64,000 bases of DNA from Candidatus Aenigmatarchaeota archaeon (GCA_016195275.1 JACPZZ010000019.1:6382-70381), one strand, 5' to 3'; positions 1 to 50,093 are shown, counted from the stretch's first letter. Made by a program: numbers and translations. The notes: a model not told the origin generated them from the sequence alone.

Positions 1-141
1 GCAGATTCTGTCAATGCGCTAGGCACGGGAACAGGCATACTGTTAACGGTAATGATAATTTACACCATGTACGAGCAGCTGGGCGCGCAGCAGATGGAGG
101 ACATGCACCCGGCCATAAGGAAGATGTTCGGGAAGGAATAA
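1..141 (+). CDS. secY: SecY preprotein translocase subunit, C-terminal fragment (gene begins upstream of window)
   Basis: Frame 1 reads ADSVNALGTGTGILLTVMIIYTMYEQLGAQQMEDMHPAIRKMFGKE-stop (stop at 139-141). This is a SecY-like C-terminus, followed by adk as in archaeal secY-adk clusters. Confidence 0.75.
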   Translation, partial: ADSVNALGTGTGILLTVMIIYTMYEQLGAQQMEDMHPAIRKMFGKE

Positions 142-4496: not shown

Positions 4497-4545
4497 ACTA
4501 ATTGTTGATTAGCACTAGTATATAAATATACTAATTGTTGATTAG
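4497..4545 (-). promoter_or_regulatory. Promoter of the ATPase gene with two 16-bp direct repeats flanking the TATA box
   Basis: ACTAATTGTTGATTAG occurs at 4497-4512 and 4530-4545. Each copy contains the dyad CTAAT-N5-ATTAG. The repeats bracket TATATAAATAT, about 25-30 nt upstream of the ATG at 4496. Confidence 0.45.
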
Positions 4546-4558
4546 TATAAAAAAACAG

Positions 4559-4789
4559 GCGCCGAGGAAGGGAATTTCAGAGCCTCTTTTAGTTTTTGGG
4601 CATTGAAGGCCTTTTTTCTAAAAAGGGCTTCATTTGAACCCTTACTGAGCTATAGCTGCTAGAAACAGGTGCTTTGCAGCTAGACGCATAATATGTATGC
4701 GTCAGTTTCCGATGCACCTGTTTCGGTCTAGCGTTCGCCCAACCGGATGTCTAAGGCTCCGAACTTAAAGGATTCCTCATCTCGCCGCC
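4559..4789 (-). ncRNA. Structured ~230-nt RNA candidate, class unknown (rod with two distal hairpins)
   Basis: The terminal helix is GGCGGCGAG/CUCGGCGCC, and a chain of further helices follows. Two G.U pairs exist only in the minus-strand reading. An oligo-U run (4549-4557) comes straight after the 3' helix strand. No credible ORF. Confidence 0.5.
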
Positions 4790-4833
4790 TTGATCAGAAT
4801 CAAGCCTTGTTGTCATAGCCTCTCAAGTATCGC

Positions 4834-37463: not shown

Positions 37464-38678
37464 ATGAGTGTGCAAAGGAATTTTGGCATATTTTTGATTT
37501 CATTAGTTTTTGTTTCATTATTTTCATTTGCAGGTTTGGCAGTGCCGGGCACATGGAAAGGCTATGCGTATGCGAACACGACGCTGGCCGAGAATGGCTT
37601 GCCGGTTTCCGCTTACATACTAGGATCGTTAAAGTCTAACACAAGCACGACCGACGCACAAAGCAGGGGTTTCTTTATACTTGAAGTCGAAGGCGCATCA
37701 GGCGATAAGGTCGGCTTCCAGATATGCGGCGTGAACGTCAACCAGGAAAACCAGTCGTGGTCTTCGGGGCCGCATTACAACGGGACTGAACCGCGTTTCA
37801 ATTTATCATTCAGCAGGCAGGCCGACAGCACGGCTTGCACGTATGCATGCGGATGCACGGGCGGATTTTGTAATTCCGGCTCGTGCGCAAGCAGCGCGCC
37901 TTCAACAGGCGGCGGCTCGACCGACAAAGGAGGCGGCGGCGGTGGCGGAACGACAACGACTACTACGACAACAACTACAACAGCAGCTACGACTACTACA
38001 ACTACAACAACAACGACTACAACAACCACGATAGTCACGCAGACCGTCAGTAAAATACCCGCAAATACGAACACAGAGATCAAGCTTCCTGCTTCAGAAT
38101 CAACAGCCGTAGAGTCGATAACAGTTCGGACAACAGCAGCTTCCAGCAATGTGCAGGTGACGGTACAAACAACATCAGCGCCTTCCAGCGCGTCAACAAT
38201 CATTTCGTCGTCAGTAGGCGCGGTTTACAGATATCTTGACATCAAAACAGTAAACGTCGAATCGTCTTCGGTGGCGAGCGCGAAATTCAAGTTCAAAGTC
38301 GAAAGGTCGTGGTTTACGGCGAATGAAATAGACCAGACCACGGTTAACTTAAACAGGCTTGTCAGTGGCAGCTGGGTTAAATTGTTGACGGACATAGTCG
38401 GCGGCGACAACAACTATGTTTTCTATGAATCCGAGTCGCCTGGCTTTTCAATATTTGCTATAACAGGCGAAAAGGTGAAGGTGGGCGCAACCACGACAAC
38501 TGTGCCTATTTCTACAACTACACAGCCTACGACAACCGCAGCAACGACAACAACAGCGCCTGTCGCCCAGCCGGGCACGGGAATTATCGTGGTAATAATC
38601 GTAATCATAGTTCTGATGGCGGGCTATTTCTACATGAAAAGCAAGCAGAACAGCAGGTTCGCGTTCCCGAAGTTATAA
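37464..38678 (+). CDS. Secreted protein with poly-Thr linkers, a PGF-pre-PGF domain and a C-terminal TM anchor
   Basis: Signal peptide present, Cys-rich patch CTYACGCTGGFCNSGSC, and a G7 + T/A(~40) tract. The PGF-pre-PGF hallmark is AKFKFKVERSWFTANEID...YESESPGFSIFAITG. The C-terminus is QPGTGIIVVIIVIIVLMAGYFYMKSK. Confidence 0.8.
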   Translation: MSVQRNFGIFLISLVFVSLFSFAGLAVPGTWKGYAYANTTLAENGLPVSAYILGSLKSNTSTTDAQSRGFFILEVEGASGDKVGFQICGVNVNQENQSWSSGPHYNGTEPRFNLSFSRQADSTACTYACGCTGGFCNSGSCASSAPSTGGGSTDKGGGGGGGTTTTTTTTTTTAATTTTTTTTTTTTTTIVTQTVSKIPANTNTEIKLPASESTAVESITVRTTAASSNVQVTVQTTSAPSSASTIISSSVGAVYRYLDIKTVNVESSSVASAKFKFKVERSWFTANEIDQTTVNLNRLVSGSWVKLLTDIVGGDNNYVFYESESPGFSIFAITGEKVKVGATTTTVPISTTTQPTTTAATTTTAPVAQPGTGIIVVIIVIIVLMAGYFYMKSKQNSRFAFPKL

Positions 38679-38744
38679 GCCAAACTTGGAACAGTTAAAC
38701 AGGCTGGAACAAACCTTAAATCTTTAACTGTTATAACTTAACGA

Positions 38745-39452
38745 GTGAAATTCATGCCGACCCAGACCCAAATACTTGTACCAGCGTTGATGGACGGCGG
38801 CAGGGTAGTCGTTCCACAAGTATGGTTAGGCCGTAATGTGGATTACAGAACAGCAAACGGCCACCCATTCACAGCAGCCGATTACCAAAAATTCAACCCG
38901 CCCACGCTGGCAGAATTAAGGCGCGCATATTTTGACAAAAACCCCGACGGATCGTGGATAAGTCCTGAATACAGGCATAGCCTCCCTTCGCAAGGAGTAT
39001 ACGGTGAATGGACATCGACGTTTTTGCGCGATGGGAACGAAATCGTGGAAAGGCCTGAAAAAATCTACTTCGATGAGGTGGGTGGGTTATGGATAGCCGA
39101 GGGCGGCAAAACATCGCCCATCAAGCTTCCGAATGACGGCTGGACGCTGGAATATGACGAGCGGACTGGATTCCCGAGCAGAACCGGGAGCAGGAAAGAC
39201 GCTAAAAAACTTTTTGGCGATGATGCGTCATATTTCTGCTCAACAAAGAACGATTTGAGGGCTGTGTTGCGGGTCTTCAGCCTCGGCGACGAGGGGCTGT
39301 TCTACGTCTACGCGGGCTACGACCCCGACGACTGGGACTCGGCTGTGGGCGTTCGTTCGGCCCGTCCTGCGACGCCGACATATTATGATCATGATGATGT
39401 GATGAGCCAGGAGGAACGCAACATATTAATAAGGAGGAATATGACGAATTAA
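38745..39452 (+). CDS. Hypothetical protein (235 aa), GC-rich
   Basis: ORF with protein-like composition. No motif recognised. Confidence 0.45.
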   Translation: MKFMPTQTQILVPALMDGGRVVVPQVWLGRNVDYRTANGHPFTAADYQKFNPPTLAELRRAYFDKNPDGSWISPEYRHSLPSQGVYGEWTSTFLRDGNEIVERPEKIYFDEVGGLWIAEGGKTSPIKLPNDGWTLEYDERTGFPSRTGSRKDAKKLFGDDASYFCSTKNDLRAVLRVFSLGDEGLFYVYAGYDPDDWDSAVGVRSARPATPTYYDHDDVMSQEERNILIRRNMTN

Positions 39453-39570
39453 AGAGGGAATATGACAGATTAAACCAGTTATCCAAAAGGAACGAGAAAA
39501 ATCGGCGAACTTCTTTCAAGAATTAAGGCACAATAATAAGTATAAGACCTGTTTTTACGAATTCTCATAG

Positions 39571-39666
39571 GAAACCGAAGGTTTCAACGAAAACCGAAGG
39601 TTTTCGTGCACAGAAAAGCCTGTTGGTTTTCTGTGTCGTGCATAGGAAATTTAATGATTTCCTATG
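39571..39666. repeat. Hairpin cluster A: four consecutive perfect hairpins
   Basis: GAAACC-GAA-GGTTTC at 39571-85. (A)CGAAAACC-GAA-GGTTTTCG(T) at 39587-607. CACAGAAAA-N9-TTTTCTGTG at 39609-35. CATAGGAAAT-TTAATG-ATTTCCTATG at 39641-66. Confidence 0.9.
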
Positions 39667-39778
39667 TATTGGCCTTGGCCGGCTGTTGCACGGGTTGCAT
39701 AGCAAGCCGTTGACTTGGGGCAGTCTCGCCGGTGTCCATCCACCCGTGGTGTTTAAATATCCGTGATGACATATCTGA

Positions 39779-40069
39779 TTGTGGATATCGTTGGTCGAAT
39801 ATCACATTTACCCGCTCTACAAAGGGAAGCCTCTCATCCCGTCGGTGGCGGCACAGCGGGAGATAGACCAGTTGTGTGCTGACCTATGGTTGGTGAAAAG
39901 GGTGCTGGAGGAAGGGCACGACTGCGCGAGGAGCAGAAGAAAGACCAATATTGTCGAGAAATGCCTGATCAGGAAGGGAAAGGAGATCAGGGCCGTCGTC
40001 GCTCTTGTGGAGTGGGAGGACAAAGGCTTTTGGAGGGTGGTCCATGTCGGTAGTACAGGTAGACATTAG
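39779..40069 (+). CDS. Small DUF4258-like putative toxin (start codon uncertain, TTG)
   Basis: 96 aa. The pattern ...REIDQLCADLWLVKRVLEEGHDCARSRRKTNIVEKCLIRKGKEIRAVVALVEWEDKGFWRVVHVG resembles DUF4258-type toxins. It overlaps the downstream antitoxin-like gene. Confidence 0.4.
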   Translation: MWISLVEYHIYPLYKGKPLIPSVAAQREIDQLCADLWLVKRVLEEGHDCARSRRKTNIVEKCLIRKGKEIRAVVALVEWEDKGFWRVVHVGSTGRH

Positions 40070-40373
40070 CGGTTGGAAATCAATTCCCTGTGAGTGCGGG
40101 AAGAAAGCCAGGCAAGCTGCTATAAAATACAAAGGGTATGAGGTCAGAGGTTGGAAGTGTAGCTGTGGGAATGACTATATTCACCCCGAGGATTCGTTGA
40201 AGGTCAGCAAGCTGGAAAAGTCGAAAGGCGTGGAAGTCAAGGTGGGATTGCTGGGCGACAGCGTTATCATCCGAATACCCAAAGAGCTTTCTGAAATTTA
40301 TGGAATTCGCAAAGGGTCTACGCTTAAGCTTGTTCCGGAAGGTTTGAGCAGAATTGAAATCAGGAAGAAGTAG
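40044..40373 (+). CDS. Zinc-ribbon + AbrB/SpoVT-domain putative antitoxin
   Basis: MSVVQVDISGWKSIPCECGK...WKCSCGNDYIHP (C-x-C...C-x-C), followed by VKVGLLGDSVIIRIPKELSEIYGIRKGSTLKL (AbrB-like). Confidence 0.6.
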   Translation: MSVVQVDISGWKSIPCECGKKARQAAIKYKGYEVRGWKCSCGNDYIHPEDSLKVSKLEKSKGVEVKVGLLGDSVIIRIPKELSEIYGIRKGSTLKLVPEGLSRIEIRKK

Positions 40374-40688
40374 GGAAGCATTGCTACCTACAGCCTGGTT
40401 GGGCGTGAGTTTGCGCGTTGAGCTTGACACTGTCCTGGACGATGCAATCAGGGAAATCCACCAGGCCTATGAGAAGGCCAAGGAGATTGCGGAGGTGCAG
40501 GCGAAGATGGCGGTGGAGGCTAGCCGTTGACTTGCGCAGGGTATGCCTGAACTACACGCTTGGCCATAGTGAACCGGATATTGAAATTCCGGTAATGACA
40601 TGAAATTCAGCAGCAATAGCTGATAGACGTGACATGGAAACGAACGATTTCTATGCACTTAAAACTAAGATCGATGAGAGAAAATAAT

Positions 40689-41606
40689 ATGGACAATATC
40701 AAAGGCTTGGATATATCAAAGGATATTACCGTAGGCGAATTTCTAAACAGCGTTAAACACACGGGATTTCAAGCCACGAACTTGGGCAAAGCCGCCGAAA
40801 TAATCGAAAAGATGAAACGCGACAAGGCCACGATATTTTTAGCTTTCACTTCTAACATGGCTTCGTCCGGATTGCGCGATGTTTTCTCATACATTGCAAA
40901 AAACAAACTTGTCGACGTTATAATAACATCGATAGGGTCTGTCGAGGAAGATTTAATAAAATCCCAAAAGCCTTTTCTTCTTGGAAGCTTTGACATGGAC
41001 GATGCCGAGCTGCATAAAAAGGGCATTAACAGGATAGGGAATATTTTAGTTCCGAATGACCGATACGAACATCTGGAAAAAATTCTGCAGCCGTTCTTCA
41101 AGAAAATCCACGACCAGCAGAAAAAAACAGGCAAAATGGTTTCACCCAGCGGGCTGATCAGCGAACTTGGCGCGCTTGCGCATGAAGATTCTTTCATTTA
41201 CTGGGCTGCCAAAAACAAGATACCGATATTTTGCCCTGCAGTCACGGACGGAGCCTTTGGTTTGCAGACGTTTTTCTACAAGCAGGATCATAAGGATTTT
41301 GGCATTGACGTTACCGCCGACATGCAACGGCTTGCTGAAATTGTCTTGCAATCGAAAAAAACCGGCGCGATAATTTTGGGCGGGGGCGTTGCGAAACACC
41401 ATACCATCGGGGTGAACATACTGCGTGACGGCCTGGATTACGCGGTTTACGTGACAACTGCGGGCGAGGGCGACGGTTCTGTTGCGGGCGCGCGGCCGCG
41501 CGAGGCGAAATCGTGGTCGAAACTGAAGGAAGAATCGCATTCAGTGTGCGTCGAAGGCGACGCGACGATAATTTTCAGTTTGCTGGCGTTTGCTTTAAGG
41601 AATTGA
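40689..41606 (+). CDS. dhs: Deoxyhypusine synthase
   Basis: The segment FLAFTSNMASSGLRDVFSYIAKNKLVDVIITSIGSVEEDL...GGGVAKHHTIG is typical of DHS. The start is placed at the MDNIKG Met of the track ORF (40629). Confidence 0.9.
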   Translation: MDNIKGLDISKDITVGEFLNSVKHTGFQATNLGKAAEIIEKMKRDKATIFLAFTSNMASSGLRDVFSYIAKNKLVDVIITSIGSVEEDLIKSQKPFLLGSFDMDDAELHKKGINRIGNILVPNDRYEHLEKILQPFFKKIHDQQKKTGKMVSPSGLISELGALAHEDSFIYWAAKNKIPIFCPAVTDGAFGLQTFFYKQDHKDFGIDVTADMQRLAEIVLQSKKTGAIILGGGVAKHHTIGVNILRDGLDYAVYVTTAGEGDGSVAGARPREAKSWSKLKEESHSVCVEGDATIIFSLLAFALRN

Positions 41607-43118: not shown

Positions 43119-43320
43119 GCTGTTAAACGCCCCTGAATACTTGGAAGGGCTGAGTTTTAGTTCAACGTTCGGCGAAGCCGAAAAACTCAAAGTTGAGTTC
43201 TCGCATGTAAACTTCTGTGAAGCAGACTATAATTCGTTAGGGAAGGGGGCGTCCGTTTTTTTGCTTCTTTTATTTCCTACGTTCTTTTAAACTCTTCAGT
43301 TACAGGATTAAAAGAAATAA

Positions 43321-43687
43321 CTACTTTTCTATCTTATGGTTCTCATCTTTCACAAATTTATCTCTAAACACCGGATATAATGCTGTTAATCTTTGCTGTC
43401 CACCAATTGATCGGTAGATTCGGTTCGGTGTGTTCTTTTTTCCCCAACACCTATGTGATGTGATTTAGCATTTAAACTGCCGTTTCTCCATAAAAGATAC
43501 GAACCAATAGGGTATCCTCTGTAGATGGAATCAAAAAGGCTCTTACTTTAGAGTTACTCCATACAAAAGGTCTTTGTAAATCAGGTAAGCCTAAATCAAT
43601 ATACCCAAATAATTGTTCAAGATGGCCACTTAATGGATTAAACAAAGCAGTTTTATCTGAATATTTGCCGTCATGTTGATACATCAT
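43321..43687 (-). pseudogene. DUF262 (GmrSD/ParB-like nuclease family) N-terminal remnant, frameshifted and truncated
   Basis: The 71-aa ORF carries the DUF262 motif LPDLQRPFVW. A second frame downstream reads IGGQQRLTALYPVFRDKFVKDENHKIEK-stop, which contains the family's DGQQR motif. Confidence 0.6.
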
Positions 43688-44157
43688 TTAACAACATTCT
43701 TAAATTCCATTCTGATTTCATTTATCTTTTTCTCATTGAGTTTAAGTAAGATTGACTTGCATTTTACTAAAAACTCAGGAGCATTCTTTACCATTTTATT
43801 ATATTGTTCATCTGGAACTGTTCTGTCAATGTAATATTGAGAATCTATCCTTGCTTTCAAAGAATCTTCTATGAAATCAAAATCTTCTTCGCTAAGAAAT
43901 TCTCTGAGAAATCTCTTTGCGAACGCTATTGTGCAAGAATGAATTTCACATTTTATGCCTATTTTTGTCAAAACTGAGTAAAGCGAAAAATAGAGAGTAT
44001 AATATGCGGTTGAGATTTTCCAATCTTTTATTACATTTACCCTCATCGACTCCAAAGCTTCTTCAGCCTTCTTGCTATACGCTTCTGCGAGATTTGAATT
44101 AGGTTCAATTAAACTCAAGCCTTCTCTCTTTCCCACACACCATTTTATCTTATCCAC
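43684..44157 (-). CDS. HEPN-domain protein (toxin of a HEPN/MNT pair)
   Basis: 157 aa and all-helical. The segment ...AEAYSKKAEEALESMR...KISTAYYTLYFSLYS...KARIDSQYY is HEPN-like. It overlaps the MNT gene by 8 nt. Confidence 0.75.
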   Translation of the reverse strand: MDKIKWCVGKREGLSLIEPNSNLAEAYSKKAEEALESMRVNVIKDWKISTAYYTLYFSLYSVLTKIGIKCEIHSCTIAFAKRFLREFLSEEDFDFIEDSLKARIDSQYYIDRTVPDEQYNKMVKNAPEFLVKCKSILLKLNEKKINEIRMEFKNVVK

Positions 44158-44740
44158 ATTTCAGCACCTTTTGGATAAACAGCTCCGTATTTTTAAAAAC
44201 TATGTGGTTCTTTAATACTTCTTTTATTAGGATATCTTGGTTTACATTCTTCTCAAATGTTTTTAATGGATAACACTTTATGTTTATTTCAATCCCTAAA
44301 TTTCTTGAAACTTTCTTGATTTCTTCTTTTTTATAGTCTCCAACTACAAAAATGTCTAAATCAGATTCTTTGTTATACATTCCTTTTGCATAACTTCCAA
44401 AAATAATACCAATTCCATTAATAAACGGGCTTATTTTTTCCATAACCTCTTTCACTAGAAGATTTTTCTCCATAAATGCAATTGATTTGTATTGCTCGAC
44501 AAATGTAAGATATCTATTGCTTAATTCGTTTATTTTTAGCTTATAAGACTTGATTTTACCCTTTACTTTTGATTCTATGATTCCTTTATTTTCTAAATCT
44601 TCAAGAATTAGCTGTGCTGTTCGCGGGCTTATTTTAAGCAATTTCTCAACTTCTCTTATATAATATTCCTTATCAAATCCATCCGTAAATAAAGAAATGA
44701 TTCGTAAGCCATTCTCAGTTATGTTTATTTTATTATACAT
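44150..44740 (-). CDS. Nucleotidyltransferase (MNT) with an N-terminal winged-helix domain
   Basis: IIFGSYAKGMYNKESDLDIFVVGD is the GS...DxD minimal-NTase motif. The N-terminal wHTH is ISPRTAQLILEDLENKGIIES. Confidence 0.8.
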   Translation of the reverse strand: MYNKINITENGLRIISLFTDGFDKEYYIREVEKLLKISPRTAQLILEDLENKGIIESKVKGKIKSYKLKINELSNRYLTFVEQYKSIAFMEKNLLVKEVMEKISPFINGIGIIFGSYAKGMYNKESDLDIFVVGDYKKEEIKKVSRNLGIEINIKCYPLKTFEKNVNQDILIKEVLKNHIVFKNTELFIQKVLKCG

Positions 44741-45149
44741 ATGTATTATTTAGAATACAGCTACTATTTATATCTTCCGACCCCGATCGTATAGTTTCGT
44801 GACGCCCCCCTTCCCGTTTCCTCAATTTAGCGAGAGTGCAACGTGCCGACCGAACGAAGTGAGGGAGAGTTCAGGCGACGAGCCTATTTTTTAACCTTTG
44901 TGAGCAAGAAATCCCACACCTTTTAAGAATGGGAGTATGTCACTAACGTCCCTATATGCATCAAATGCAAAAACTATCGGATAGAGATTAGGTGTCGCTA
45001 ACTTTACAGCTTAGAAGCAAATTCCCTTATAAACCCAGGAACAAGCTTATAAGTCTGTGACATTATTCTAGTCTAGACATTGGGAAAGGAGTTTCTCGTT
45101 CTGAGGAATTTTTTGCCGTGTCATATAGGAGAAAAAGGTGAATATAGGA

Positions 45150-49714: not shown

Positions 49715-49855
49715 TCTATTCCGGCATCCTTAAAATCTTTTGCAGTTTCAACTGTTTTATACAAGCCGCCGAAGACAGGTTCGAATGGAATTATAACGTG
49801 GGGAAACCGTGATTTGAACACGGGTCACCGACTTTTCCTAAAAGTTTCTTTTGCT

Positions 49856-49934
49856 GTAGGAAACTTTAAGTTTCCTACACACGAAAATCTAACGATTTTC
49901 GTTGTTAAGGTTTTCTTTACAAAAGAAAACCTTA
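49856..49934. repeat. Hairpin cluster B: three consecutive perfect hairpins, related to cluster A
   Basis: GTAGGAAAC-TTTAA-GTTTCCTAC at 49856-78. (A)CGAAAATC-TAAC-GATTTTCG(T) at 49881-902. (T)AAGGTTTTCTTT-ACA-AAAGAAAACCTT(A) at 49906-34. Confidence 0.9.
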
Positions 49935-50093
49935 CCCGAAGCCGGTATCTTAGACCAGGCTGGACCATTTCCCCTGTTGCAGACTGGCGCACATCTCCAA
50001 TATGCGTCAATAGGCTAAACTACCTTTTCCCTATTTACGGTTTTGCGAATTTAAAGAAAAAAGCGTGGCCTTTATTTACAAACTTGCCGTGGA

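Follow-up and report, generated by a model that had tools for sequence, protein, structure and literature searches.

A predicted tRNA-Pro(CGG) intron built of hairpin modules that also occur in a few gene spacers of Candidatus Aenigmatarchaeota

Why do two runs of perfect hairpins occur in the DNA of a Candidatus Aenigmatarchaeota archaeon, each a short distance upstream of a putative toxin gene? The window considered here is the whole stretch of 64,000 nucleotides GCA_016195275.1 JACPZZ010000019.1:6382-70381. Its initial annotation described four abutting perfect hairpins at 39571-39666 with stems of 6, 9, 9 and 10 bp (cluster A), a homologous cluster B, and a connection of both with operons of a "DUF4258-type" toxin. 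The four hairpins are present as described (Table 1), and the homology is borne out: the alignment of A with B scores 31-41 versus approximately 18 +/- 3 for shuffles, the two clusters share one family of modules, and the second hairpin of A matches its counterpart in B (A2 and B2) with a single compensatory pair change, C-G to T-A.

The window contains 10 perfect hairpins with a stem of at least 9 bp versus 2.1 +/- 1.5 in first-order Markov simulations, and 6 of the 10 belong to clusters A and B. Hairpin coverage per 100 nt reaches 88 nt in A and 87 nt in B, the runner-up having 42. Considering these counts and the coverage, the clusters are real, non-random and not generic to this DNA. The loops of A1 and A2 are indeed GAA triloops closed by C-G; they have no GC-GAA-GC core. 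The GCGAAGC at 43172, previously thought noteworthy, is a chance occurrence, since no enrichment was found (11 in the window versus 10.05 +/- 3.7 expected).

Table 1. Positions of the hairpin clusters, the predicted tRNA gene and neighbouring features in the window
Feature	Position	Strand	Description and basis
tRNA-Pro(CGG) gene (predicted)	49798-49974	minus	101-nt intron; ARAGORN with intron search
5' exon	49935-49974	minus
Intron	49834-49934	minus
3' exon	49798-49833	minus
Cluster B (predicted intron hairpins)	49855-49934	minus	perfect stems of 11, 9 and 13 bp
Cluster B, hp1	49906-49934	minus	13 bp
Cluster B, H2	49881-49902	minus	9 bp
Cluster B, H4b	49855-49879	minus	11 bp
Intron tail GCAAAAGAAACTTTTAGGAAA	49834-49854	minus	contains the 3' strand of the bulge-helix-bulge
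Cluster A (four tandem palindromic modules)	39566-39667	minus, order A4, A3, A2, A1	BLAST against L079, alignment, covariance model
A1, GAAACC-GAA-GGTTTC	39571-39585	no strand	6-bp perfect stem; truncated GGAAAC-type (H4b) module
A2, ACGAAAACC-GAA-GGTTTTCGT	39587-39607	no strand	9-bp perfect stem; H2 type
A3, CACAGAAAA-GCCTGTTGG-TTTTCTGTG	39609-39635	no strand	9-bp perfect stem
A4, CATAGGAAAT-TTAATG-ATTTCCTATG	39641-39666	no strand	10-bp perfect stem; H4a type
Imperfect H4a-like hairpin CATGGAAAC-GAAC-GATTTCTATG	40633-40655	no strand	33 nt ahead of the start codon of DHS (40689)
Lineage-specific insertion	38679-39565	plus	one side of cluster A; context, outside the element
Lineage-specific insertion	39668-40646	plus	other side of cluster A; context, outside the element
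Third family member: T-rich palindrome CCCTTTTCTTTT-AAA-AAAAGAAAAG with purine tail TGGAAAAGAAAATC	146-196	plus	nhmmer E=1.6e-11, the sequence itself being part of the profile

A predicted tRNA-Pro(CGG) gene around cluster B

On the minus strand, cluster B is followed just downstream by a T-arm and an acceptor end and preceded just upstream by GGGGAAATGG; this tRNA location is absent from the initial annotation. ARAGORN with the -i option locates a tRNA at c[49798,49974] but misplaces the splice point and labels it Leu(CAA); when the exons are joined at 37/38, ARAGORN calls tRNA-Pro(cgg), with a 7-bp acceptor stem and A73. Neither default ARAGORN nor Rfam (at the gathering threshold and at E<=10) detected the gene, and it is unannotated.

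The 3' exon is present unchanged in Candidatus Aenigmatarchaeota MAGs. Eight distinct orthologues from this group share the 37/38 intron, whose length ranges over 49-139 nt, and ARAGORN calls the orthologous genes tRNA-Pro(cgg) with introns of 49, 51, 98 and 139 nt. The junction in the window consists of the pairs U32:A, U33:G and C34:G, the mismatch G35xA, a 5' bulge GGU, a helix h' AAGG/UUUU and a 3' bulge AAA. All eight orthologues have U32:A/G, U33:A/G, C34:G and G35xA with a 5' bulge of GG plus one base: U32, U33 and C34 pair with intron positions -3 to -5, G35 stands opposite A-6, the 5' bulge is composed of G36-G37 and intron base 1, and the 3' bulge of intron positions -2 and -1 and A38. 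Helix h', which lies inside the intron and is 3-9 pairs long, covaries (AAGC/GCUU, GACU/GGUC, AACC/GGUU, GAGCC/GGCUC). The bulge-helix-bulge (BHB) geometry is found in 8/8 orthologues, where the central helix is formed by three standard pairs and the conserved G35xA.

Judged by this architecture, cluster B is the intron of tRNA-Pro(CGG), with a slightly relaxed, near-canonical BHB. Since the site is canonical and the BHB nearly so, we presume that the intron is removed by the tRNA splicing endonuclease. DPANN splicing endonucleases have been reported with a relaxed BHB motif (PMC5829648), which the G-A mismatch fits.

In these MAGs, only tRNA-Pro(CGG) has the modular intron. Other tRNA genes (L004 700-771, L008 6240-6362, L005 440-650) have introns of 13-25 nt without hairpin modules; these include Pro isoacceptors with the same T-arm and acceptor stem. 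A C/D-box sRNA in the intron or near cluster A was also considered and rejected, as inspection revealed no proper box spacing and Rfam gave no match.

Origin of cluster A and of its toxin-like neighbours

All related loci were fetched via the deoxyhypusine synthase (DHS) gene or via the tRNA itself; the DHS homologues from Candidatus Aenigmatarchaeota show 82-88% identity. In eight of these loci (L029, L031, L032, L034, L038, L041, L042 and L079) the gene order is a giant surface protein, a PGF-pre-PGF protein of ~410 aa and DHS, and these genes are direct neighbours. The window has ~1.95 kb of extra DNA between the 404-aa gene (end at 38678) and DHS (start at 40689), and cluster A lies within it.

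BLAST against L079 resolves this region into three segments: L079 3-280 corresponds to window 38385-38671 on the plus strand, L079 288-420 to window 39667-39566 on the minus strand (79-85%), and L079 436-689 to window 40647-40900 on the plus strand. The middle segment of L079 comprises five hairpins in tandem, which occupy the whole spacer between the DHS promoter and the stop codon of the preceding PGF-pre-PGF surface-protein gene, and the alignment of this segment with the minus strand of cluster A scores 89 versus 16 +/- 2.3 for shuffles. Individual hairpins also find their counterparts. CACAGAAAACC-TGTC-GGTTTTCTGTG of L079 is the orthologue of A3; A4 has near-identical copies in L079 (289-314, 96%), L029 (9850-9873) and L009/L031; and the last hairpin of L079, TGAAACCTTCGGGTTTCCT, is almost the same sequence as A1. 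The arm of A1, TAGGAAACC/GGTTTCCTA, is found on one side only (39566-39585), and we attribute the shortness of this hairpin to the loss of part of one arm from a GGAAAC-type module. The BLAST segments show cluster A to be the inverted orthologue of an array that already existed upstream of DHS; comparison with the relatives (L079, L029) shows it, at the level of aligned sequence, as both inverted and rearranged.

The relative orientation of A and B deserves a comment. The alignment of these two clusters alone gives 41 versus 33 for the two orientations; the covariance model described below places A on the plus strand, and synteny with L079 places it on the minus strand. The ambiguity is intrinsic, since the units are palindromes. 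An identical hairpin order in gene orientation, as stated earlier, is probably wrong, as synteny with L079 makes A colinear on the minus strand.

Cluster A is flanked by two insertions. The first carries a 235-aa ORF (38745-39452) without a family match, and none of the eight related loci has this insertion between DHS and the PGF-pre-PGF gene. The second holds a 96-aa ORF and a Zn-ribbon/AbrB ORF (39779-40373), the putative toxin-antitoxin (TA) pair. A 16-nt direct repeat, GC[A/T]AGCCGTTGACTTG, brackets this pair at 39702-39717 and 40519-40534. Just outside the repeats lie the H4a-like hairpins 39641-39666 and 40633-40655, the latter being an inverted repeat with an arm of A4. The repeats and the flanking hairpins may be traces of the cassette insertion.

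The connection with toxins proposed initially would make the arrays a conserved element (RNA, insulator or recombination site) travelling with DUF4258-type TA cassettes. Both clusters do lie upstream of small two-gene cassettes, at the 113 and 141 nt given for the distances to the downstream ORFs, and the repeats and hairpins bracketing the cassette at A agree with such a connection. We nevertheless consider it hardly credible. Cluster B is the predicted tRNA intron; in ten other genomes or strains the related arrays adjoin DHS or lie within the tRNA gene, and TA genes are absent from their surroundings, as for those of L029, L034, L036, L040, L041 and L079; and synteny shows that the array at A is older than the TA insertion next to it. 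The toxin ORFs themselves have no detectable similarity to each other (BLASTP). The gene after A (39779-40069), described as DUF4258-type, has no Pfam or NCBIfam match even at E<=1, and the gene after B does match DUF4258, although below the curated cut-off (21.6 bits versus 25). By these comparisons the TA cassettes beside A and B appear as independent, later insertions rather than partners of the hairpins, and the apparent toxin-linked signal is coincidental.

No tRNA or Rfam family was found at 39300-39900 (ARAGORN including the intron search, Rfam). A BHB scan around cluster A gave 9 and 8 matches per strand versus 11.4 and 4.2 in shuffles, none of which brackets the array convincingly. 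The interpretation of the cluster A flanks as decayed tRNA exons was dropped: their global alignment scores 56.5, which is above the average of the shuffles (38.9 +/- 7.0) but below the best of them (65.5). The genes that precede the hairpin arrays in the window and L009 are not homologous.

Two further observations concern other parts of the window. A HEPN/nucleotidyltransferase pair (43684-44740, minus strand) lies within 43300-44800, where the G+C content is 27-35% versus ~45% for the window, which suggests recent acquisition. The intergenic region 4497-4833, upstream of an AAA_14/DUF4143 ATPase gene, contains two copies of ACTAATTGTTGATTAG and an inverted repeat with 29-nt arms (4662-4724, 76% complementary) unrelated to the hairpin family.

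The module family, its copies and its variation

The shared set consists of modules of 20-30 nt: hp1 (TAAGCC-T-rich / A-rich-GGCTTA), H2 (ACGAAAAYC / GRTTTTCGT) and H4 (TAGGAAAY / RTTTCCTA). Clusters A and B are both built from this set and are members of one family of modular palindromes. In L029, the same DHS spacer has six or more hairpins. Its element aligns with the tRNA intron of the window over 88 columns (local alignment, 122 versus 18 +/- 2.5 for shuffles), and the core is 96% identical over 53 nt; the tRNA-Pro intron on the contig of L029 itself (L003) is short and has no such modules. A covariance model (R1) built from four H2+H4 copies matches cluster A at 39579-39649 with 25 bits (E ~0.003).

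In 8/11 genomes or strains, copies lie no more than 250 nt from DHS, before or after the gene. In L034 the copy is just downstream of DHS, and in L036 and L041 it separates the promoter-like GGCTTTTATTTCTTT from the start codon of DHS; L040 has a partial copy. Another copy lies between two other genes in L032 (15919-15986), and one more in the tRNA leader of L036. The concentration at DHS is partly a sampling effect, as the loci were fetched via DHS or the tRNA. Most of the related 20-kb loci have one or two sites, and none was detected in L042. A two-hairpin cluster common to L009 (7400-7444) and L031 (20840-20885) is composed of CATGGGAAAT-CAATA-ATTTCCTATG and ACGAGTTGT-TAT-ACAACTCGT; it is located downstream of a 181-aa gene, ~1.8 kb from tRNA-Pro, and its first hairpin is almost identical to A4.

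The window contains three sites of the family: A, B and the element 146-196. This agrees with the initial view that the hairpins are not a generic intergenic feature. The third element begins from the stop codon of an ORF running off the window start and precedes an AAA_17 kinase-like gene (203-787). It belongs to the "hp1 plus purine tail" units, which form the minimal tRNA introns and also follow the DHS stop codon in L079, L034 and L035, as well as the stop codon 139-141 in the window.

The position of hp1 raises the question of transcription termination. Could the arrays be termination or insulator structures, i.e., T-rich palindromes placed after stops that block read-through by oligo-T on both strands, with the copy in the intron as a by-product? 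Archaeal termination uses oligo-T, the hp1 arms hold runs of T4-T6 on both strands, and hp1 starts at a stop codon at window 139-141, L029 9758-9760, L034 9888-9890 and 10928-10930, and after DHS in L079. We regard this reading as improbable, because the same T-rich hairpin is found within a tRNA gene, and termination there would do damage. Moreover, H2 and H4 are not T-rich, the window has ~60 genes and just three such sites, and the same spacer in L031, L038 and L042 manages without arrays. As for cluster A, no T-run follows its stems, which are A+T-rich, and a scan for terminator-like sites (a G+C-rich stem, then a T-run) in 39300-39900 gave 0; the initial annotation was right not to take it for a classical terminator.

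The modules vary as units. L034 and L035 have the same DHS protein and 100% identical flanks, and differ by an exact 50-nt H2+H4 pair (L034 10955-11010, L035 1751). The empty site, CCTTA|AGGGAA, is the junction of the minimal tRNA introns; no target-site duplication accompanies the pair, only a 1-nt ambiguity (A). This single case is possibly a presence/absence polymorphism, and equally possibly a hairpin-mediated deletion or a difference in assembly between a MAG and a Logan contig. In L029, L036 and L041, hairpins are nested inside the hp1 loop. A 26-nt hairpin, AGGAAAAACCTGGGTTTTTCCTGCGG, is identical in the intron of L032 (19730-19790, minus strand) and in the tRNA 5' leader of L036 (14554-14830, minus strand), so that intron and leader appear to exchange modules. 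The tRNA-Pro(CGG) 5' leader of L036 has four to five hairpins.

Pairing is well preserved. In nine copies, 95.5% of cells are paired, 10/19 pairs have double changes, and 0/500 shuffles reach the observed score, although the alignment was fitted to the model and these statistics therefore lean toward structure. The same copies have 23 double changes versus 3 single-sided (G-U type) cells. All seven stems of clusters A and B are perfect (67 bp). At third codon positions of DHS, the window and L029 are 54% identical; the module is 96% identical. Between species with saturated synonymous sites such a value is, by this comparison, far above the neutral expectation.

Such conservation invites an explanation in terms of function: a structured-RNA module common to the tRNA-Pro(CGG) intron and to the UTRs of neighbouring mRNAs, mainly that of DHS. 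Its role could be to offer a shared protein a binding platform or to stabilise both the mRNA ends and the excised intron; in one variant, the hypusine/aIF5A pathway might through it be linked to the processing of proline tRNA. The degree of conservation relative to synonymous sites, the covarying stems, the presence of copies near DHS in most of the genomes or strains, the copies of L036 and L041 between promoter-like motif and start codon, and the sense orientation with DHS of every DHS-linked copy outside the window are all in its favour. Nonetheless, we find this explanation unlikely. The DHS element is missing in L031, L038 and L042, and hence dispensable; where it is present, it may precede the promoter, lie in the leader or follow the gene, and in the window the array is inverted. 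The near absence of G-U intermediates and the perfect stems are more typical of DNA palindromes than of RNA helices under evolution. A relaxed BHB scan of the intergenic copies gave matches at the chance rate, and the sampling was centred on DHS.

A bolder proposal would unite the intron and the DHS-flanking elements into one RNA module coupling proline-tRNA processing to DHS expression; its weaker version is that the intron was born from a dispersed palindromic element or seeded it. DHS hypusinates aIF5A, the factor needed for translating proline runs. We give it little credence, below that of the structured-RNA explanation; if the weaker version were true, it would offer a direct view of BHB intron gain.

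Proposed mechanism, significance and known systems

We consider it rather probable that the arrays are small palindromic modules which propagate as DNA and are tolerated where they lie, in gene spacers and in an intron that is spliced, and that the TA cassettes are not their partners. The description of the modules is firm; the mechanism is what we infer. The modules would propagate and decay as discrete DNA units, through insertion and deletion, nesting of one module within the loop of another, and copying from one to another of their sites (tRNA intron, tRNA leader, a few spacers). Two routes seem likely: a trans-acting enzyme acting on the hairpins (similar to MITE or REP elements), or hairpin-mediated template switching or gene conversion. 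The modules would persist where they are harmless, i.e., in the spliced-out intron and in non-coding spacers. Once transcribed, they would fold into very stable stem-loops, and the T-rich arm of hp1 right after stop codons may incidentally aid 3'-end formation. Among the three alternatives named initially, the MITE-like and the single-stranded DNA hairpin readings are still viable, and the RNA or insulator travelling with TA cassettes is not supported. Counting against spreading modules are the low copy number, two to three per sampled genome region, and the missing target-site duplication at the one clean indel; and the high sequence conservation could equally be a sign of function.

Also counting against it, a search of the window ORFs of at least 90 aa revealed no transposase, integrase or HUH domain, and the Pfam tables of the related loci list none. 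Exact-pattern scans gave one chance match of the H2 pattern in viral contigs, located in coding DNA; only chance matches of two junction patterns in viral contigs; and 19 chance matches of TCGTGYRTAGGAAAYTTAA in metagenome contigs, none followed by the complementary arm. A literature search found no published description of such elements in Aenigmatarchaeota.

The observation has a practical side. Default ARAGORN and Rfam are blind to tRNA-Pro(CGG) in this lineage; claims of "missing tRNAs" in DPANN archaea based on MAGs can thus be artefacts. It also has a general one. Within one orthologous tRNA, whole hairpin modules distinguish one intron from another, and the same modules occur almost unchanged in protein-gene spacers of other species. 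We believe that this is rare sequence-level evidence for exchange of archaeal tRNA-intron sequence with non-tRNA DNA, which bears on the gain and spread of BHB introns.

Two known systems were rejected by architecture. Integron attC sites resemble the arrays as hairpin-forming DNA beside small cassette genes, including TA genes; an attC site, however, is a single long imperfect hairpin with R''/R' (R''/L''-L'/R') boxes, extrahelical bases and an adjoining integrase, whereas the window arrays comprise several short perfect hairpins, the window has no integrase domain, and the arrays of relatives have no cassettes. Replication-origin ORB elements were rejected likewise, with no cdc6/orc genes present.

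Closer likenesses are found among dispersed palindromes. REP/BIME elements with RAYT, and the hairpin-ended MITEs (PATEs) of IS200/IS605, are short extragenic palindromes occurring in tandem clusters. The window family shares with them the tandem palindromes, compensatory stem changes, one insertion/deletion without target duplication (L034/L035) and a GTAG motif at the foot of the H4b stem. It differs in that no HUH transposase was seen in the places searched, the copy number is low, the hairpins are perfect rather than bulged, and one of their homes is a predicted tRNA intron. With respect to MITEs in general, presence/absence with identical flanks was found in one case and a target-site duplication was not. 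Very small dispersed palindromic repeats of cyanobacteria nest within each other and are high-copy. The likeness is in units of 20-30 nt inserted into one another and varying between orthologous spacers of close relatives; these repeats belong to another domain of life, and have a high copy number and no link to tRNA introns.

By its architecture, cluster B belongs among the archaeal BHB tRNA introns, with which it shares the 37/38 site, two 3-nt bulges, a central helix, covarying outer helices and conservation. It differs from them in the fourth pair of the central helix, which is a conserved G-A mismatch, in its length (49-139 nt in orthologues) and in being built of interchangeable perfect hairpins that are also found outside tRNA genes. 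What is new here is a tRNA intron assembled from hairpin modules, the same modules being present in a few gene spacers as well. The dispersal resembles the transposition of tRNA introns among Thermoproteales (Fujishima et al. 2010, as presented in PMC4090602), where near-identical intron sequences at non-orthologous loci imply spread at the DNA level. The copies described in that account are all in tRNA genes and all have a BHB; the family reported here has additional copies in protein-gene spacers and in a tRNA leader, with BHB motifs not above chance, and its moving unit is the hairpin module, not the whole intron.
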